DNA of 64,000 nt from a phage. Below the pieces are notes generated by a model. It searched no databases, was not told the origin of the DNA, and worked only from the letters and a program-made list of their open reading frames with translations. This document shows positions 4,247-64,000 of the stretch, piece after piece. The position numbers were made by a program, and so were the translations under genes. The stretch's first letter is position 1. Each line of letters opens with the position of its first letter. The stretch lies in assembly GCA_018175275.1 (NCBI GenBank), contig GCA_018175275.1_4531.1, one strand, 5' to 3'.

Positions 4247-5812
4247 TTAATTCGACAGGTTTTGTGCTGAAGGATCTAAAGCAGAAACAGTATCAGATGT
4301 TCCAGTACCTGCTGTAGCTAAACCATCTCCTGATCGTGAAGTTTTGTCAGGCATATAGTTATCCATGAATTCAAAGAATTTCTCTTTATTGGCAACAATA
4401 TCGTCAGGGATGCGATATTCGAAACCAATTTTTTCAAGGAACTCGTTAATAACTTCTGGGGTTAAAGGTATTGCACCAGAGGCTACCAACTGCTGAATAG
4501 CTTTAGCATTTACTTCAATATCAGGATCACCCATTTCACCACTGACAAACTTAGGCATATCTTCATCAGAAAGGAAGATATTGTTTAGTCGTAGTGTTTG
4601 AGGGATCAGTTGAGAGTTTATAGCTTCTACAACAATATCTACATCTCGCTCAATAAAATGAGACAATAGTGTTTGTTTGTTGTCAGAAAGCGCAAAACTT
4701 CCTGCATCACCATCACCCATAATCAACACACCCGCACCAAAGCGGTTATAAATATCCAGTTTGCGTTGTTTGATTAGTGCTTGAGTGTCAAACTGTTTAC
4801 CCGTGCCATCAACACCTTGGAATACAAGATCGTATTGACGCATCACTGTGCCTTCATAAACGTCCGAAGGCAATACCATGTAGGCTTGCTCACCAGAGTG
4901 CAGGTTAGCGATGTTGGCTTGGAGAACTCGAAGAGATTGTGCTTCATCCCCAGCAGGATCTAAAGACGCCCTGTTTAGAATGTCACTAGGAACCTTAAGA
5001 ACTGGCATACCGCCTAAATCTTTAGATACCCCAATAACCTCAAATTCCTGAATAAGAGATTTTTCACGCCAGCTACGATATACAGCTAAAAGCGGACTAA
5101 CTCCTAGTGGGTTATTCTCTGTAATGTTGCTACCAACAAATAAAACTTTACTGAAAGGAATTTCTTTAATACCAGTTTCTAAAGTTGTATTACCTGGGGC
5201 TAACATTGTATTGGTGATATTCTGGTTAACAGACAAGATAGAACGTCCGTCTGCCGAATATGTAAAAGGTTGAGCCATATGAAGAGTATCTTGTGGTCTA
5301 AAAGCCAGCTTAGTTAATCGCCAATACCCAAAGTAAGGACTCTTAGGATCTTCATCCAACTCATAAACTTTTTCTGCGAATGCAAACCCATATTGCTTAT
5401 ATGTCAAAAGTGATCTAACATATTGACGTAGAGGGGCTTGCATATTACGTAACATATAATCAATAAACTTAGCAGCTTTTCTTGACTTTGCTGAGCTTAC
5501 ATTGTATTTTATCTTAAAATCAAAGAATGCTCTATCTACAAAGATATACGTAGCATCAAGAGCAGTAGCTACATCAGGGTCTTCACCCATCTCTTTAAAA
5601 GTTCGAATACATTCTGGGAAACGAGTCTCATAAGGTTGCATGAAATTCGTAAATGCTTTGATTGAGTTTAATCCGATCGTTCCTATTTCAGGTGACAGGA
5701 GTAACGTTTTCTCTTTCTCTGCTTCTTTTGTTGGAGAGAGAGCAGCTTTATTTGCAGCACCTTTGTCCCAGTATTCTGACTTTTTAGTGTACGTTCTTTT
5801 TCCTGTTGACAC
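4247..5812 (-). CDS. putative portal protein
   Basis: 521-aa ORF directly downstream of the large terminase gene; size and position typical of portal. Confidence 0.45.
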   Translation of the reverse strand: MSTGKRTYTKKSEYWDKGAANKAALSPTKEAEKEKTLLLSPEIGTIGLNSIKAFTNFMQPYETRFPECIRTFKEMGEDPDVATALDATYIFVDRAFFDFKIKYNVSSAKSRKAAKFIDYMLRNMQAPLRQYVRSLLTYKQYGFAFAEKVYELDEDPKSPYFGYWRLTKLAFRPQDTLHMAQPFTYSADGRSILSVNQNITNTMLAPGNTTLETGIKEIPFSKVLFVGSNITENNPLGVSPLLAVYRSWREKSLIQEFEVIGVSKDLGGMPVLKVPSDILNRASLDPAGDEAQSLRVLQANIANLHSGEQAYMVLPSDVYEGTVMRQYDLVFQGVDGTGKQFDTQALIKQRKLDIYNRFGAGVLIMGDGDAGSFALSDNKQTLLSHFIERDVDIVVEAINSQLIPQTLRLNNIFLSDEDMPKFVSGEMGDPDIEVNAKAIQQLVASGAIPLTPEVINEFLEKIGFEYRIPDDIVANKEKFFEFMDNYMPDKTSRSGDGLATAGTGTSDTVSALDPSAQNLSN

Positions 5813-5881
5813 TTGTTCCTCCAGTCAGGTATAAAATCGTTAAGGCAAGGCTGTATTATATACAACCTCACCTATCTAGTT

Positions 5882-5910
5882 ATAATACACTTTAAAGTGA
5901 CTTTTGTCAA
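5882..5910 (-). promoter_or_regulatory. sigma70-like promoter (TTGACA-N17-TATTAT)
   Basis: minus-strand -35 TTGACA (plus 5905-5910) and -10 TATTAT (plus 5882-5887), between terminase and portal genes. Confidence 0.45.
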
Positions 5911-5913
5911 CAA

Positions 5914-7989
5914 TTATCTTTTACGGACACTATACGGTTGGTGAAATCCGCTGTTCATTCTACTGTATCCTGTAGGAGCATTTGTTGTTGCAGGGATAGC
6001 TACTGCCTTGAAAGTATTCTCTTTTGACAGAGTATTGAAACAAGAAGCAGCAGCATCGGGAATGTCATCTTTAATAGTGGCTGTAGATCTTTCACCATTG
6101 AAAGATTCCAATTCTTTATAAAAGTGGGTTAGAGTTTCCACATTAGGGAAAGAATCTTCAACAATATAAACAAAACCATTTTGACACGCACTACTAAAAG
6201 GCATAAAACGCTGAAGCTTTTTCTTGTTACCTGGCATAGCATCTGGTTTAACAACAAAACCTTCTAGAATAAGTTTCTTTGCAGACTCTGTATATTCTAT
6301 TGTCCCAGCGCCAGATGGGTCTTTAGGAAGCACTACTGTAACTTCTGGTCCATCAATCTTACATTGATTAAGAATCAGATTATCCCTTTCCCCAGGTAGT
6401 CTTCTAAACCTTCCGAAAATTTTACTTTTCTCATCCACAGCGTCATAGTCATAGTCACCAAAGATGTAGATATTACCATCTTGATCTTTACCCATTTTGA
6501 CAGACGTTGTATAGTCTGGATAACGATAAGTTTCTGTAGGAACTGAAACAGCTTTATCCCAGGCTCGCATTAGTTTAAGATTGTTAGGAACATCTTTATA
6601 AGATATTTTATGTAACCATTCACGTTGAAAGAAAGATTCTTTCTGAATACGTGCAAACCAACAACCATCCAGAAGCTGTGCTCTTTTAATTGCTGTTTGT
6701 GATTTAAGCTGTGCTAAGTAATTAGGGTTAAGCCTAATCAGTTCTGGGTTATCAAATATTGTCCCACCAATAAATACGAAAGTTTGTGGTTCAATAACAA
6801 CTGTCTCCCCTGTATTAGGGTTTTCCATGAAACAGTTTTCTGGATATTTTTCTTTCAGTTCTTCAGGTGTGTCAGCAAAAACAGGTTCATCGTTAACAAT
6901 GATGAAATATTTTTGTTTACCACACATATCTTCTCTAGGATAACCACCCTCATCAAGATAAGGTAACACCCAATTCAAAACCCAACTATCTGCATCGGGG
7001 TTACATGTGCACAACATGAAGCTTGTTTCTGATTCTGAACGCATACGTCCCAGAAGATAGAGCATTTCATATTGCGTGAAGTGGGTTAACTCGTCAAAAC
7101 CTACCATTGAATACTGTGTACCCTGATGGTTTGTTTCTGCTGTTACGTTATCATTTTCCAAATGGTCGAATTTGAGGGTTCCACCACCAGTGGCTTCAAA
7201 AATGATATCCATTGTACTTTCTTTTACGTGCGGTTGTAAAGGAAGATACAAACGTTTTGCTTCTGTAAACAGACCACCTGGTTTACGGTGAGCAGTGGTG
7301 TTCTTACGGAAAAGTATTCCACCAAACAAAGGATCTTTGTAGGCGTATTTTAAAGCTTTCAGCAATAGCAGACGAGACTTGCCGCTATTCCCAGTAACGA
7401 AGCAGTGATCGCCACGTCTAAAGACAATATAGCTGCTTGGAGTCTCAAAACAATATTTCTTATCATCTGTTGAAATAACCTCGTGTATTTTTAAGTAAGT
7501 GCTCTTTTTACCAGGTATGTTAAAAGGAACACGTTTACCGAATGGATTTTCTACATAACCTTGAAGGGGTTTTCCTATTTGCTGTAATGCAATAAGATCT
7601 CCTACAAGAATCTCAAAATGTTTCTTTGATTTCTTTTTCTTATAGAATACAAAACGGTGTTCCATACTAAGTTCTTGGAACAACCCTACACCATTTGTTA
7701 TTCTGTATAGGTTATCTCCATTTAAATCGTATTCTACAAAATAAGGTGTTACCAATTCTAAACGCTTATTCTTAGGGTTGTATTGGTAAATATCTTCTCC
7801 CGAATATTCACTAATCTGTCTCCAACCATCTTTTGTAAGATATTCCGTTTCAGCAGAAACACATCCAGCGGCACCACCATAAATCATAACTTCTGGCATT
7901 AAATCCATTGCAAGAGTCTGTTTACCTGGTTGAGCCTTTACTTCAATATCTACTCCAGCTAAACTACCTGCTGCCTTTTTCTTTGCCAC
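5914..7989 (-). CDS. terL: terminase large subunit, interrupted by a mini-intein
   Basis: 691 aa; Walker B-like VGFDELTHF and downstream LCTCNPDADSW; N-terminal GGAAG and GKSR halves of a P-loop separated by a 159-aa insert with intein block A/B signatures. Confidence 0.6.
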   Translation of the reverse strand: MAKKKAAGSLAGVDIEVKAQPGKQTLAMDLMPEVMIYGGAAGCVSAETEYLTKDGWRQISEYSGEDIYQYNPKNKRLELVTPYFVEYDLNGDNLYRITNGVGLFQELSMEHRFVFYKKKKSKKHFEILVGDLIALQQIGKPLQGYVENPFGKRVPFNIPGKKSTYLKIHEVISTDDKKYCFETPSSYIVFRRGDHCFVTGNSGKSRLLLLKALKYAYKDPLFGGILFRKNTTAHRKPGGLFTEAKRLYLPLQPHVKESTMDIIFEATGGGTLKFDHLENDNVTAETNHQGTQYSMVGFDELTHFTQYEMLYLLGRMRSESETSFMLCTCNPDADSWVLNWVLPYLDEGGYPREDMCGKQKYFIIVNDEPVFADTPEELKEKYPENCFMENPNTGETVVIEPQTFVFIGGTIFDNPELIRLNPNYLAQLKSQTAIKRAQLLDGCWFARIQKESFFQREWLHKISYKDVPNNLKLMRAWDKAVSVPTETYRYPDYTTSVKMGKDQDGNIYIFGDYDYDAVDEKSKIFGRFRRLPGERDNLILNQCKIDGPEVTVVLPKDPSGAGTIEYTESAKKLILEGFVVKPDAMPGNKKKLQRFMPFSSACQNGFVYIVEDSFPNVETLTHFYKELESFNGERSTATIKDDIPDAAASCFNTLSKENTFKAVAIPATTNAPTGYSRMNSGFHQPYSVRKR
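7387..7863 (-). other. candidate mini-intein (Hint domain) within terL
   Basis: insert begins Cys (CVSAETEYLTKDGWRQISEY, block A-like), contains LSMEHRFVF (block B-like S/T-x-x-H), ends ...VTGN followed by Ser; excision gives YGGAAG|SGKSRLL = GxxxxGKS. Confidence 0.5.
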
Positions 7990-9782: not shown

Positions 9783-9859
9783 TGGTCGGAATTGCAGGAT
9801 TCGAACCTGCGACCCTACGCTCCCAAAGCGTATGCTCTACCAAACTGAGCTAAATTCCG
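9783..9859 (-). tRNA. tRNA-Pro(TGG): tRNA-Pro (TGG)
   Basis: acceptor CGGAATT/AATTCCG, D-stem GCTC/GAGC, anticodon stem TACGC/GCGTA with loop TT-TGG-GA, T-arm GCAGG-TTCGAAT-CCTGC; 5' end overlaps the stop of the HNH gene. Confidence 0.7.
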
Positions 9860-10368
9860 TTATTAATGTGCTTCCATGTGGTGTAAGTAACAATATCCTG
9901 TATTGTCCATCTTGAAACTTCATACTTTTTTGCCAATGCTCGTTGACTAATTTTAGTAGTCTCATACTCCATACGGATTTGAATAACATCTTTTTCTGAT
10001 AACTTGGCTTTATTATTTTCTTCCCCTTTAGGATTAACAAGTAATCCTGTGCTAACAGCGTGTGTCATATTCTCATGCTGTGTCGCCCACTCCACGTTAT
10101 CCTTGTGGTTGTTAAGCTTGTTACCATCTTTGTGATTAACAGATTTCTTGTTTTCAGGATTAGGATGAAAAGCTTTACAAACCAAACGGTGAATCTTAAA
10201 ACAAATACTTTTTCCTTTTCTACCGCCAATTTTTGTTGCGTGGGTATAGTAACCTGTTTTAGATATGGTTTGGGATAGTATCTTATTAGTTCTCTTACTT
10301 CTTAATCTTCCGAGGTCACTTATTTGGAAGTAATTCTCATAACCAGCTACATCACGCCATTCTTCCAT
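9850..10368 (-). CDS. HNH homing endonuclease (NUMOD4-like N-terminus) inside the tRNA cluster
   Basis: 172 aa; N-terminal EEWRDVAGYENYFQISDLGRLRS; HNH core HRLVCKAFHPNPENKKSVNHKDGNKLNNHKDNVEWATQHEN; AAGGAGG RBS. Confidence 0.6.
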   Translation of the reverse strand: MEEWRDVAGYENYFQISDLGRLRSKRTNKILSQTISKTGYYTHATKIGGRKGKSICFKIHRLVCKAFHPNPENKKSVNHKDGNKLNNHKDNVEWATQHENMTHAVSTGLLVNPKGEENNKAKLSEKDVIQIRMEYETTKISQRALAKKYEVSRWTIQDIVTYTTWKHINNGI

Positions 10369-11936: not shown

Positions 11937-12141
11937 ATAAATGTGGTAACAGAGACGCTGACGATTGTAGAGAACCGCTACATTCTCTAAGACCAAGCCC
12001 AACTTTCAGCGTAAAAGTTCTTGAGCCGAGACTGTTCCTTTTCCTCTTTGGTAGCTAACCTCTGAAGAAGTAGTCTCTAACACTATCCGCAGTGCAAGCC
12101 CCTCTTAACAAAAGTCAACGACCCTGTTACCACACTTGATG

Positions 12142-12176
12142 AACGTATCCTAACATATGAAGGATACGTTTGTCAA
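12142..12176 (-). promoter_or_regulatory. promoter -35 box plus 10-bp perfect palindrome (candidate operator) heading the tRNA cluster
   Basis: minus-strand CTATTGACA (plus 12171-12176) followed by AACGTATCCT-N9-AGGATACGTT inverted repeat (plus 12142-12170). Confidence 0.4.
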
Positions 12177-12183
12177 TAGTTAT

Positions 12184-12432
12184 TTAAGCATATTCTGCTA
12201 CTTCTTCACTATCTTTCTTTTCCAGAAGAGCAACAACCAAAGCTTCTGCGTTAAAAGTGTTAATTTCAAGATCCATCTCTCGCATCAGAGCCAAGAAATC
12301 AATAACTTTAACATCTTTAGTGATTACAATAGAAGTTGTACCATTGTTTTCAGATGTGTATTTTTCTGGATGGAAAAGAAAAACTGCATTGCCGTTACCA
12401 TCTTCAAACACGTGTTTTTCTAATAGAGACAT
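12184..12432 (-). CDS. hypothetical small protein
   Basis: ORF with AGGAGG RBS before ATG at 12432 (MSLLEKHVFEDGNG...); track ORF extends further upstream. Confidence 0.4.
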   Translation of the reverse strand: MSLLEKHVFEDGNGNAVFLFHPEKYTSENNGTTSIVITKDVKVIDFLALMREMDLEINTFNAEALVVALLEKKDSEEVAEYA

Positions 12433-12440
12433 TGTTCCTC

Positions 12441-12692
12441 CTAATCTGTTAGTTGTTCGTCCTCTACCAAGTTTGACACGAGAACGTCTGTTATACATTG
12501 ATGCTGATAAACCCTTTCGGGACTATCATCAAAAGCCAAACCTGTGCAAATAGAACAGAGGTCTGATTCCTTGATGACTCCATTTTTATCACGTCTGGAG
12601 TGGTTTGTCAAATGCCTATTACAAGCACGGCACCTAAAATAAAAACTATTTTGCATATATCCTTCGAACCCCAAATGGGGAGTGATCGGCAT
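12441..12692 (-). CDS. hypothetical Cys-rich small protein
   Basis: 83 aa with CRACNRH...CSIC cysteine pairs (possible zinc ribbon). Confidence 0.35.
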   Translation of the reverse strand: MPITPHLGFEGYMQNSFYFRCRACNRHLTNHSRRDKNGVIKESDLCSICTGLAFDDSPERVYQHQCITDVLVSNLVEDEQLTD

Positions 12693-12729
12693 CTCCTCAC
12701 TTCTAGTTTAGCACGAAGGATATCTTAAG

Positions 12730-12915
12730 TCAACTAGGAATAATTTTATCCTTTTTGGTTTCATAACCAGTCCAATCTAAATCCTCCCAGCCTTCATCAT
12801 CGTCTAACACATTGTCATCGTCATAAGATGCAATGTTATAAATAGAACGTGGATTACAAGACATACAATCTTTAATAGGCACATGATGCCATTTGCACGG
12901 ATTCTCACTAATCAT
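12730..12915 (-). CDS. hypothetical small protein
   Basis: 61-aa ORF, last gene of the minus-strand block before the strand switch. Confidence 0.3.
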   Translation of the reverse strand: MISENPCKWHHVPIKDCMSCNPRSIYNIASYDDDNVLDDDEGWEDLDWTGYETKKDKIIPS

Positions 12916-12942
12916 TGCACACCTCCATTCTTGTTAAGATGT

Positions 12943-13137
12943 TCCGTACTGTACTTCATACTAATCTATAGATCAAGTATTATTTATAATAATTTATTAT
13001 TTTATTTTTTAATTGATAGAAGTTGATCTGTACGTACCAGTTCTGATACACTGTACCTGTTTGTTAGATCTAATAATTATTTATTATTAATATTTAATAA
13101 TTATTAATCTAGTACGGAGTACAGTACTTGAGTACAG
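12943..13137. repeat. AT-rich strand-switch region flanked by inverted GTAC-rich repeats
   Basis: left CCGTACTGTACT (12943-12955) and right AGTACGGAGTACAGTACTTGAGTACAGAGTACT (13111-13143) are mutually inverted, enclosing about 140 bp of >85% A+T; genes diverge on both sides. Confidence 0.45.
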
Positions 13138-13397
13138 AGTACTACATCAACAACCTAAAACCTTAACTCGCTGCGCTCGTTAATAGATTTCTAGGGTAGC
13201 ATACTTCGAACACAAAAGTCAAGAGTTTTATTAAAATTATTTTCTGTGTGCAAAAAACCTTGCTTAAATAGGTAGCAATAGTATAGCCTATAACATAAGC
13301 TTCATAAGAGGCTCGTAGAGCAAGTTCACTTACTAGGTAAGGTGATTTATCATCTTATATATAAAAAGTGCGTCAGAGACGCGTTTAGGAGGCTAGA

Positions 13398-13721
13398 ATG
13401 AGATTTACAAGACAAGAGGTAGTTGTGCTGGACGAAGCAATGACAATGATCGTCTTTTACTACGAGGATATCTTCTGTGCAGCATATCATTTAAATGATA
13501 TTCAGATTGAATGGCAGCAGATAGCATTCCTGTTGGACAAGAGTAATCATTTGGATGGCTTTGAGTATTTGGAGTGGGATGGTGCAAAGGAAGTTAAAAT
13601 TGTAGGGTTAAATCACGATCAGATTGTTGACATGCAATGTAAGTTGTGTCATTATCAGTTCTCAAACAAAGTCAAACTCGAAAGGCAATTGGAGGTGGTT
13701 AAAGATGATAGCACTAATTAG
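13398..13721 (+). CDS. hypothetical protein (first gene of plus-strand block)
   Basis: 107-aa ORF with AGGAGG RBS. Confidence 0.45.
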   Translation: MRFTRQEVVVLDEAMTMIVFYYEDIFCAAYHLNDIQIEWQQIAFLLDKSNHLDGFEYLEWDGAKEVKIVGLNHDQIVDMQCKLCHYQFSNKVKLERQLEVVKDDSTN

Positions 13722-13817
13722 TGAGAACCCAATCCTGACAACAATTGTTCTGATTTTTGCCATGTGTGTGGTTCACGATGTTCTGGTAAGTTATTTTGAC
13801 AACAAAGGAGGTAAGAA

Positions 13818-14012
13818 ATGAAAGACGTTATTCAAATGGTATTCCGTGTCACCCTGGATGATATTCATGTTGTTAAAGGCACCCAGAACTACACAGAAGC
13901 GAAAGAACATTTCCTGGAATGGGTTGAGACGTTGAAGACACAAAACGTTTCCTACAACCGTGTGACGCTCACTGGCGACCATACCCCAATCATGGAGTAC
14001 GTAAAGAAATGA
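13818..14012 (+). CDS. hypothetical small protein
   Basis: 64-aa ORF, RBS AAAGGAGG, tightly packed. Confidence 0.4.
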   Translation: MKDVIQMVFRVTLDDIHVVKGTQNYTEAKEHFLEWVETLKTQNVSYNRVTLTGDHTPIMEYVKK

Positions 14013-14248
14013 GCAAATATCCAATTACAGGTGTAACCTATTCTTGTGTATCAAAAGGTGGCTTATATACGGTCGTGGAATTTCCAAAACCTGCCGGAAT
14101 ATCTAAAGTGTTTGATCCTGTTGTTATCTATGAAGATCTTAGAACAGGTCAACGTTATTGGAGATTTGTGAATGACTTTTTAGATCGTATGGAGGTAGTA
14201 AGTGGCGAAAACACCGAAGAAGTTATCAAAGCCAAAGAACGTTACTAA
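14009..14248 (+). CDS. hypothetical small protein
   Basis: 79-aa ORF, start overlaps previous stop. Confidence 0.4.
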   Translation: MSKYPITGVTYSCVSKGGLYTVVEFPKPAGISKVFDPVVIYEDLRTGQRYWRFVNDFLDRMEVVSGENTEEVIKAKERY

Positions 14249-14555
14249 GAAACCGAAAAACGAGGTTCTCAAAGTAGCCAAATCAGTTCCTAAGAAAGAT
14301 AAGTTTGATACGGAGGCATTCGTCTTTGACACACCAATCGAGAAGATTGAAGAAGCGTTGCAACGTCTTGAGGAGCAGGAGGCAGATCCAATGGCTGAAC
14401 CACTCACGGCAGACCAAATCTATTGGTGGGGAATATGGACTTTGCAACTGCCAGAAGCAAAAAGAAGAGGAATGACTTCAGTTCCTACTTGTGCAAAAGA
14501 AGCTGCTGTGTTAGGTTTGTATGAGAAATCTAAAAAGAGGAGCAAAAAGAAATGA
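14202..14555 (+). CDS. hypothetical lysine-rich protein (possible nucleic-acid binding)
   Basis: 117 aa; N-terminus KTPKKLSKPKNVTKKPKNEVLKVAKSVPKK; start uncertain (overlaps previous ORF). Confidence 0.35.
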   Translation: MAKTPKKLSKPKNVTKKPKNEVLKVAKSVPKKDKFDTEAFVFDTPIEKIEEALQRLEEQEADPMAEPLTADQIYWWGIWTLQLPEAKRRGMTSVPTCAKEAAVLGLYEKSKKRSKKK

Positions 14556-14833
14556 TCAAGACTTTCCTGAAGTGTGTAAAAGCAACAGATAGTGAGTGGT
14601 ACTCTGGATTATTCACTGTTGGCAAGAAATATGAGATCCTCAACGGGACAGGCAAGAAGTTTTCTCTCGTTGTAAACGATGAAGGCACGAAGCAAATGGT
14701 ATTTGCTGAAAGCTCTGTCTATGGTATCTTTGAAGTGGTGCAAGAAGGCTCTCCAATGATTCTGGAGTATCATGGCACTAATAAACCATATACTGCTATG
14801 GATGTTATCAACAACAAGAGGAATGCAAAATGA
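14552..14833 (+). CDS. hypothetical protein
   Basis: 93-aa ORF, overlapping-stop/start packing. Confidence 0.4.
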   Translation: MIKTFLKCVKATDSEWYSGLFTVGKKYEILNGTGKKFSLVVNDEGTKQMVFAESSVYGIFEVVQEGSPMILEYHGTNKPYTAMDVINNKRNAK

Positions 14834-15012
14834 TTTTGCTCTATTCCGGTAAGGCAAAATACATGCAAGGTGTTAAACGCGTAGAGGTTACTAGGACAGT
14901 AACAATAGGGAAATCTTTTATCGTTTATTGTTTCCTTGTTAATGGGAAGGAGTATGCTGTAGCAAAGACCTTGGTTGATAATGGTAAAACTTGGAAAGTG
15001 GAGGCACTATGA
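14830..15012 (+). CDS. hypothetical small protein
   Basis: 60-aa ORF in operon-like packing. Confidence 0.3.
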   Translation: MILLYSGKAKYMQGVKRVEVTRTVTIGKSFIVYCFLVNGKEYAVAKTLVDNGKTWKVEAL

Positions 15013-53708: not shown

Positions 53709-54068
53709 TCTTCCTCCTGTTCGGTATTATTCACTTGTGAGACACAATGTAACATAAGCTTTGTGAGTTTGTCAAGGATCTAATTACATTCTACAGAAGA
53801 AGAGGGTTAATAACTATAGGAATAGTCTTACTATAGGTGCAATACTAGTTAAGAGTTAGATTGATAGGTAAGACTTATCTTAAACAGATAATTGATAGGT
53901 GAATCAGCATTGACTTTTTCAAAAAAATATGGTACCCTAAACATATGTTTACGAGCGATAGCGAGTAGTAGATTTCTATATAATAATGTTTCATGTTACT
54001 CACGATAGTGAGGTATGAAACGTAAGTGAAGGTAGATAAACTATGATCATCTATCTACCATCTATTAA

Positions 54069-54278
54069 TCAATATAGATCTAATGTTAGACTAACAGTTA
54101 TCCAACAAACAATAGCAGTCCATATAACAAGTAATGATCTACAAACTACATCCCATTCAAATACATTGTATGTTAACCATTCTCCCATCACAACAGAAGA
54201 ACCCAACCAACATCCAACAACAACTATAATCCAATAAAAGAATCCTACAGTAGAGTATACAGCAAAAGCTTTTAACAT
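54069..54278 (-). CDS. hypothetical small hydrophobic membrane protein
   Basis: 69 aa, largely hydrophobic (FFYWIIVVVGCWLG...); GGAGGAAA RBS before ATG 54278. Confidence 0.4.
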   Translation of the reverse strand: MLKAFAVYSTVGFFYWIIVVVGCWLGSSVVMGEWLTYNVFEWDVVCRSLLVIWTAIVCWITVSLTLDLY

Positions 54279-54691
54279 CTTTCCTCCAGAAGTTGTTCAA
54301 CAGTTTGACGAGTATGATTGTCCCAGTAAACCTTAGTGAAGTCAAGAGTTCCTTGTTCGTTTCTCTTAGTTTCGAAGAAGTATCCGCCTTCTCTTTCTAC
54401 TCTGTCTCTAATGTGCTCTATGAGGTGCTTTTTACAAGATGCTGATAAACAATAGTCATACTCCCCACGAAGCAATGCTATAGCTGCAAGTCTGTTATCA
54501 CCAACTTGAGATATTGTCCAAGAAAGCATACTACCTTTTATACCTAAAGGTGTTTGTCGAATGGAATATCCACCATGCCGACTGATAGAAATTATGGCAA
54601 GTGGTTCTCCTGTTAGAGATCTTCCTAATGCACCTTCTGTTGGACTTCCTTCGATAATACGTTTGAAAAAGGCTTTGATCTTACCTAACAT
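54272..54691 (-). CDS. hypothetical protein
   Basis: 139-aa ORF. Confidence 0.4.
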   Translation of the reverse strand: MLGKIKAFFKRIIEGSPTEGALGRSLTGEPLAIISISRHGGYSIRQTPLGIKGSMLSWTISQVGDNRLAAIALLRGEYDYCLSASCKKHLIEHIRDRVEREGGYFFETKRNEQGTLDFTKVYWDNHTRQTVEQLLEERC

Positions 54692-63984: not shown

Positions 63985-64000
63985 TCAATAGTGATCCACT

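Follow-up and report, generated by a model that had tools for sequence, protein, structure and literature searches.

In our preferred, though tentative, reading, the non-coding region at positions 12943–13143 of the window (the whole 64-kb stretch of phage DNA analysed here) is the core of a compound promoter and leader control region for a leftward transcription unit, which would comprise three small ORFs, a tRNA cluster, and the terminase and structural genes. Two tandem promoters of the host type (sigma-70, extended -10) would fire leftward. The distal one, P_L1, would carry a conserved 5' leader hairpin and transcribe through the region, and the proximal one, P_L2, would lie at the region's left edge, with the left arm of a set of GTAC repeats providing its -10 and start site and the adjoining A+T block 1 serving as an upstream activating tract, either UP-like or curved. 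The central and right GTAC clusters, together with A+T block 2, would then be a fast-evolving, low-complexity spacer or leader specific to one clade, and the rightward genes would have their partner promoters at 13260–13353. The sequence-only reading had placed here either an origin or a bidirectional control region built around an A+T core; a divergent control region is retained, but not that anatomy, since the promoters are not symmetric around the core and both well-supported ones point leftward.

The window belongs to a Phapecoctavirus genome, i.e., a phAPEC8-like myovirus of the Stephanstirmvirinae, about 150 kb in size, that infects E. coli. Its positions 12000–15000 are 99.1% identical to ESCO25, and about 65 other records are 95–99% identical; the complete genome of phAPEC8, used below for genome-wide counts, has 147,737 bp. 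The region falls inside a 482-bp non-coding gap (12916–13397) whose two bordering ORFs point apart (Table 1), as had been noted from the letters alone. To the left lie the leftward 61-aa ORF, two further small ORFs, nine tRNA genes, the terminase gene (4.5 kb from the region), and structural genes, and to the right the rightward 107-aa ORF is followed by genes for RNA ligase, polynucleotide kinase, DNA ligase, exonucleases, and nucleotide metabolism. The replication genes are 40–80 kb distant from the region and, according to the annotation, the phage encodes a PolA-type polymerase and a primase/helicase fusion.

None of the related records annotates a function for the gap, even though three records of one study, including that of nepoznato, mark in it a 55-bp "repeat_region", which coincides with one of the two arms of an imperfect inverted repeat rich in A+T. 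Pfam domains are lacking in the eight small ORFs that flank the gap, Rfam covariance models run against 12300–13900 returned just two snoRNA matches at chance level (E > 2), and no similarity to E. coli genomes was found.

Table 1. Features of the divergent gap and its two borders (window coordinates)
Feature	Position	Strand	Description
61-aa ORF	12730–12915	-	left gap border
P_L2, predicted proximal leftward promoter	12976→12948	-	-35 TTGATC (12976→12971), 17-bp spacer, -10 TACAGT (12953→12948)
A+T block 1	12960–13029 (about)	none	84.5% A+T; low-complexity TATTATTT x4; adjoins the -35 of P_L2 upstream
Central GTAC cluster	13030–13056	none	GTACGTAC at 13030–13037, GTAC at 13053; CTGTAC twice
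A+T block 2	13060–13110	none	92% A+T; TAATTAT x5.6 / 17-mer x2.2
Right GTAC array	13111–13143	none	five GTAC in 31 bp; degenerate heptamer (A)GTAC(A/G)G
Leader hairpin	13163–13183	- (leftward-reading)	TTAA-CGAGC-GCA-GCGAG-TTAA; core GCGNAGC, tandem G.A pairs
P_L1, predicted distal leftward promoter	13222→13193	-	TTGACT-N18-(TGc)TACCCT
Candidate rightward promoter	13260–13287	+	TTGCTT-16-TATAGC; weak in window clade
Candidate rightward promoter	13325–13353	+	TTCACT-17-TATCAT; overlaps conserved box GGTAAGGTGATT-TATCAT
Small G+C hairpin GCGTCAGAGACGC	13370–13382	none	immediately precedes the ribosome-binding site of the 107-aa ORF
107-aa ORF	13398–13721	+	right gap border

Several side observations concern the surroundings of the gap. 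The 107-aa ORF is mosaic: among phages that are otherwise near-identical, its nucleotide identity in EcG1 is 81%, versus 97–100% for its flanks, and its amino-acid identity is 93.5% in phiWec188 versus 58% in phiWec179, a pattern that suggests that the gap is a recombination boundary. Within the tRNA cluster of the window and of nepoznato there is an HNH endonuclease ORF (172 aa, 9850–10368, minus strand), at a place where phAPEC8 and ASO2A have tRNA-Gln and more tRNAs, which suggests the insertion of a mobile homing endonuclease. Finally, deposits of Campylobacter, Acinetobacter, Pseudomonas, and Klebsiella phages include Phapecoctavirus genomes that are about 98% identical, and these records with hosts other than E. 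coli probably reflect mis-assigned hosts or contaminant coliphages.

Predicted promoters, leader hairpin, and A+T core

Divergent sigma-70 signals are present in the gap: the diverging genes of either side are preceded, on their own strand, by predicted -35/-10 pairs with 16–18 bp spacing. The predicted start of P_L1, at about 13186, is to the right of the region, and its transcript would cross all of it. Across lineages, this promoter takes the form TTGAC(T/A)-N14-15-TATGCTACCCT, and the promoter family to which it belongs, TTGAC-N13-16-TGnTAnnnT, we regard as real because it occurs 14 times in the window versus 1.2 expected (11-fold) and 29 times in phAPEC8 versus 2.6 expected, 26 of these 29 being co-oriented with genes. 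P_L2 is the sole sigma-70 promoter predicted within 12943–13143; its -10 and start region coincide with the left GTAC arm (GTAC at 12946 and 12951), and equivalents of the form TTGAC(T/C)-17/18-TA(G/C)A(G/C)T occupy the corresponding position in phiWec188, muut, Klebsiella phi1_175008, and Citrobacter Tr1. The motifs themselves, with their conservation and statistical excess, are shown by the sequence, whereas their use as promoters and the role of the A+T tract are what we infer.

The leader hairpin is built on a 13-mer, CGAGCG(N or NN)AGCGAG, that sits 12–15 nt downstream of the -10 of P_L1, is identical or nearly so in five lineages, and occurs in three copies per genome. All 17 distinct copies have the core GCGNAGC or GCGNNAGC, and the bases of the flanking stems vary by lineage, being covarying or complementary in about half of them. 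With its tandem G.A pairs the hairpin can fold on the leftward-reading strand only, i.e., the non-template strand of P_L1; sheared G.A pairs are not modelled by ViennaRNA. Promoter and hairpin together form a module, in full TTGACTTTT...TATG(C/G)TACCCTA-N12-15-CGAGCG(N/NN)AGCGAG, which is conserved across the Stephanstirmvirinae and has neither an Rfam match nor an annotation. Its other two copies, at 53910–53966 of the window (plus strand) and at 134.5 kb of phAPEC8 (L009:34470–34560, minus strand), have no A+T tract. A search of IMG/VR with TACCCTA...CGAGCGNAGCGAG returned about six unrelated contig families versus about eight chance matches expected for a 19-base pattern in 18 gap combinations, and for this reason we make no claim for the module beyond the subfamily. 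A long minus-strand RNA hairpin at 13150–13230 was also discarded, its one arm being invariant and the other varying without compensation.

The comparison of syntenic gaps covered five lineages, namely the window clade, phiWec188/179, Justusliebigvirus muut, Klebsiella phi1_175008, and Citrobacter Tr1. Conserved in all five are P_L1 with its hairpin, P_L2, and an A+T core directly upstream of P_L2; in each lineage the most A+T-rich 60-mer of the gap begins at the P_L2 -35, and the core, whose window counterpart is A+T block 1, is kept in composition but not in sequence. Homologues of the 107-aa ORF exist across the subfamily, at about 43% identity in Justusliebigvirus, and the fact that P_L1 and the hairpin are kept in five lineages in which this neighbouring protein has diverged so far argues for a control region. 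Relative to the phiWec clade, the promoter-hairpin module is 85% identical and the flanking ORFs are 77–90% identical, versus 63% identity with 39 gap columns for the region itself, which is the most diverged segment locally. This divergence, along with the lack of GTAC arrays and A+T block 2 in the sister lineages, also agrees with the control-region reading, as does the other divergence point of the genome, which holds back-to-back promoters within 115 bp.

The base composition of the region is extreme. The interior between the GTAC arms had been described as about 140 bp of nearly pure A+T, and it is indeed very A+T-rich, but the description is overstated: 12957–13110 has 81% A+T, and the richness is concentrated in two low-complexity blocks of about 70 and 50 bp, parted by a GTAC-bearing centre. 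The region contains the most A+T-rich 60-mer of the 64-kb window, and in phAPEC8 (148 kb) it provides both the most A+T-rich 60-mer and the most A+T-rich 150-mer of the genome. Strong stable-RNA promoters of E. coli, such as rrn P1 and tyrT, have UP elements or upstream A+T activating tracts, and P_L2 resembles them in having its A+T tract immediately upstream of the -35 and in leading into a tRNA cluster. It differs from them in that the tract is 3–6 times longer than a canonical UP element, comes in two blocks, and is the genome's most A+T-rich place. Three facts weigh against the control-region reading: some 125 bp with 85–92% A+T far exceed what an UP element needs (about 20 bp), the tract is unique in a genome whose other strong promoters do without one, and a 10-fold build-up of an otherwise avoided palindrome, GTAC, is left unexplained.

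On the rightward side, the promoter candidates span 13260–13353, beyond the region. The first has a counterpart in phiWec, TTGTGT-16-TATAGT with TGc, and the box overlapped by the second occurs once in the genome. The small hairpin at 13370–13382 scores as terminator-like on the minus strand. Other signals were set aside: TTGCTTAA at 13260, considered as a T4 MotA box, is not conserved in phiWec; CGCTCGTTAA, considered as a lambda-nut boxA, is found in one clade only and on the wrong strand; and a check by eye for the LexA, FNR, and IHF consensus gave no convincing site.

Regarding the further copies of the module, that at 53910–53966 fires against the surrounding gene block (53780–54350), and more than 400 nt downstream of it contain no ribosome-binding site plus ATG, so that its product may be a non-coding or antisense RNA. 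This copy is closely preceded by direct repeats, ATTGATAGGT x2 and ACTATAGG x2, and a back-to-back promoter is found nearby at 53775→53746. Moreover, each of the early sigma-70 promoters of phAPEC8 has downstream of it a conserved G+C hairpin, GTAGGGCGGCAATGGTGCCGCC, present in at least 10 copies (L007:238–3221, L009:43712–47561); annotated as "PHIRE promoters", this element resembles a stem-loop of the 5' leader more than a promoter. Judging from the sequence, a promoter plus a conserved leader hairpin would be a general design of this phage, which favours the control-region reading.

A possible origin of replication

The main rival, which we consider possible but doubtful, is a transcription-activated origin of the T4 oriF/oriG or T7 primary-origin type. 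Transcripts from P_L1 would enter the A+T-rich unwinding element, where an R-loop would prime leading-strand synthesis, and the GCGNAGC mini-hairpin of the displaced non-template strand would load a primase-helicase similar to T7 gp4. The two readings are not mutually exclusive.

The layout agrees with such an origin. Counted from the predicted P_L1 start, A+T block 2 (not present as such in the sister lineages) spans +75 to +125 and A+T block 1 spans +155 to +225, and the arrangement of a promoter followed by a candidate DNA unwinding element is conserved in five lineages, with the promoter pointing into a core that keeps its composition and not its sequence. Further points on this side are the unrivalled A+T content, a tract longer than an UP element, a PolA-type polymerase and a primase/helicase fusion as in T7, the location at a divergence point of transcription, and the hairpin, which is confined to the non-template strand and is of a class found at primase-dependent origins. 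On the other side, the conserved A+T core adjoins the -35 of P_L2 in the fashion of an UP element, the promoter-hairpin module occurs three times per genome with two copies lacking the tract, and the analogous leader hairpin of the early promoters favours a role as RNA; indeed, the 13-mer mini-hairpin may act as RNA.

The T7 primary origin consists of the promoters phi1.1A/1.1B and a 61-bp A+T-rich region. The phage studied here is similar in its predicted tandem promoters, which would fire into an A+T tract, and in its combination of a PolA-type polymerase with a gp4-like primase-helicase; it differs in that T7 relies on an RNA polymerase of its own and on a defined primase site, with nothing comparable defined here. 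The related phage rV5 also has a PolA-type polymerase and a primase/helicase (PMC3606486). In T4, oriF (uvsY) and oriG (gene 34) pair a promoter with an A+T-rich unwinding element that is sequence-nonspecific (PMC3016281), and the region shares with them a candidate element of this kind, unconserved in sequence, within about 100–200 bp downstream of a predicted promoter, as well as a divergence point with a flip in skew (PMC3016281). The T4 promoters, however, are MotA-dependent middle promoters, whereas the one predicted here is a plain sigma-70 promoter with extended -10; unlike at oriF/oriG, the promoter module also recurs twice without an A+T tract.

As for the hairpin, GCGNAGC and GCGNNAGC are the two classes of "mini-hairpin DNA", which are reported at the primase-dependent origins of G4, St-1, and alpha3 and at ssiA of RSF1010 (PMC13037366). 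The 13-mer resembles them in its cores (GCGCAGC, GCGAAGC, GCGATAGC) and in being restricted to one strand (PMC13037366). The known mini-hairpins are priming signals of ssDNA phages and plasmids, or the hairpin promoters of N4, whereas the present one occupies about +10 to +25 of a sigma-70 promoter.

GC skew had been put forward as a check on replication initiation. A sign change is found at about 13000, but it is fully explained by the direction of transcription: the cumulative skew of phAPEC8 bottoms out at 57.9 and 135.9 kb and peaks at 23.7 and 101.3 kb, which are exactly the four switches in gene orientation, with the global minimum falling on the other divergence point. Since all four extremes coincide with transcription switch points, skew gives no independent support for an origin and we discard it as evidence; in rV5 it was likewise attributed to the direction of transcription (PMC3606486).

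Origins of other types find no counterpart in the region. With respect to iteron origins, such as lambda ori and plasmid oriV, there are no sets of three or more direct repeats of about 17–22 bp, just GTAC units of 4–7 bp and short repeats in two copies, and no initiator gene adjoins or overlaps, the eight flanking ORFs having no Pfam family. With respect to a DnaA/oriC-type origin, there is no cluster of DnaA boxes (one perfect box, about the chance level), and the three GATC are not significant. The perfect box, TTTTGCACA (13247–13255, minus strand), is situated in between the divergent promoters; phiWec has a version with one mismatch, and the remaining lineages lack the box.

A more specific proposal, which we hold to be unlikely, is that the Stephanstirmvirinae have an origin activated by the host RNA polymerase, composed of a sigma-70 promoter, a displaced-strand mini-hairpin for priming or helicase loading, and a downstream A+T unwinding element, to which the GTAC arrays of the phAPEC8 clade would have been added as newly acquired sites for the primase-helicase or an origin factor.

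GTAC repeats, spacer sequence, and genome ends

The GTAC repeats are where they had been reported, with the left arm CCGTACTGTACT at 12944–12955 and the right arm AGTACGGAGTACAGTACTTGAGTACAGAGTACT at 13111–13143, and their clustering, also proposed from the sequence alone, is far above chance. GTAC is depleted about 3-fold in the window (61 sites versus 178–224 expected) and similarly in phAPEC8 (157 versus 450), yet 10 of the 61 sites fall within 12946–13142, and 20,000 random placements of 61 sites never put more than five in any 200 bp. The densest 200 bp of phAPEC8, which has one GTAC fewer in the region, holds nine, and the next densest four. The description of the arms as mutually inverted is not distinguishing, as they match at 11 of 14 positions when inverted and at 10 of 14 when direct, because the GTAC unit is itself palindromic. 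Nor is there enrichment of GATC/AGATCT behind the TAGATCT palindromes to which attention had been drawn: the region has three GATC, denser clusters exist elsewhere in the window, and the total of 278 is close to the 296 expected. Two further signals were rejected, i.e., the GTAC array as a formal tandem repeat, which Tandem Repeats Finder does not call, and a fold z-score of -3.9 for 12916–13230, a by-product of the self-complementary GTAC units.

The avoidance of palindromes extends to other motifs. The ratios for window and phAPEC8 are 0.34–0.35 for GTAC, 0.34 for CCGG, 0.39 for GGCC, and 0.46 for CTAG, with GGATCC observed 0 times versus 8.6 expected and CGATCG once versus 6.2; restriction avoidance is the explanation that this pattern suggests. 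GATC itself shows no such avoidance, and an N6-adenine methyltransferase is among the proteins that the phage encodes.

The repeats had also been taken for protein-binding sites, but as conserved operator-like sites the arms do not stand, for they are missing in four sister lineages. Arrays are not found beyond the clade of at least 93% identity, the sister gaps having 0–3 GTAC each; the central cluster is replaced in the sisters by an element TATAGAGCAGATCTGTTA(G/C)TAT, and, compared with the phiWec clade, the right array represents an insertion of 37 bp. The GTAC arms, the most conspicuous feature of the region, are its least conserved part and would be a recent trait of one clade only. Within the clade, the three clusters are kept across about 65 isolates at 93–99% identity.

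Two opposite explanations of these repeats have been considered, neither of which we find probable. In the first, RGTACAG, AGTACT, and GTACGTAC would be bound by a DNA-binding protein peculiar to this clade, which would either control the tandem promoters or serve to mark the site. This would account for ten GTAC per 200 bp in a genome that avoids the motif, for the orientation of GTACAG (leftward in the left and centre clusters, rightward in the right one), and for the gathering of AGATC(T) instead in the sister gaps (7 of 15 in the phiWec locus, 8 of 20 in the Tr1 locus). Clusters of the GATC palindrome in oriC and at the P1 pac site offer a precedent of a 4-bp palindrome gathered locally in an A+T-rich regulatory stretch, although here the palindrome is GTAC and the cluster is clade-specific. 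We know of no GTAC methylase or binder for this phage, and no candidate emerges from the eight small flanking ORFs, which lack Pfam domains. The 107-aa ORF was rejected as the binder, as it does not vary in step with the arrays: in EcG1 the ORF is diverged and the arrays are identical, and in phiWec188 the ORF is 93.5% identical and there are no arrays. Moreover, the units are spaced 5–8 bp apart, with no helical phasing, and the origin of the right array as a single indel fits slippage.

In the second, equally improbable to us, the A+T repeats and the GTAC heptamer would have expanded neutrally, in the manner of microsatellites, within a tolerant spacer between promoters, with no function of their own. 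The tandem low-complexity repeats of the A+T blocks, the fastest divergence locally, the single-indel nature of the right array, and the loss of one GTAC by phAPEC8 without consequence are all compatible with it. Against it, the three clusters persist in the isolates mentioned above in spite of genome-wide negative selection on GTAC, and the A+T core is kept at its site in all five lineages.

That the region is a packaging signal or a physical genome end (pac site or terminal repeat) is very improbable and largely refuted: it is non-coding, repeat-rich, and near the terminase gene, it carries the repeat annotated in nepoznato, and the record of phage nieznany starts inside it, but the 342-bp direct terminal repeat of BME3, from a sister genus (PMC12210895), maps instead to the non-coding gap at 5.5–7.0 kb of phAPEC8, and the nieznany break is an untrimmed assembly overlap with the complete element at the tail of the record. 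The apparent deletion of A+T block 1 in nieznany is an artefact of the same overlap. The phAPEC8 gap in question (5512–7022, just past window position 64000) is a 1.5-kb non-coding stretch of the early region and, because it is homologous to the terminal-repeat stretch of Justusliebigvirus BME3 (L010/L011), is likely to be the physical genome end of phAPEC8-like phages, whose records begin at arbitrary positions.

Meaning for the phAPEC8/rV5-like phages

The phAPEC8/rV5-like phages are widely used in phage-therapy collections, and yet no origin, mapped promoter, or regulatory element had previously been defined for them; our literature search found no transcriptome of any Stephanstirmvirinae phage. 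Their main control region is now mapped, with two predicted tandem leftward promoters, a leader hairpin that extends across the subfamily, and a candidate unwinding element. The region is within the known kinds of phage control DNA, being an unannotated promoter region and possibly also an origin. Its one peculiarity, the local build-up of an otherwise avoided GTAC palindrome, is unexplained, and the adjoining promoter-hairpin module, shared by the whole subfamily, is previously undescribed.

If the origin reading is false, this is an ordinary, though unusually A+T-rich, promoter region. If the more specific proposal with the mini-hairpin as priming or loading signal is true, the site would be the first origin for rV5/phAPEC8-like myoviruses and the first instance of a mini-hairpin having a role in the origin of a dsDNA phage. 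If the origin reading as such is true, the site would be useful both for engineering and for studies of replication.
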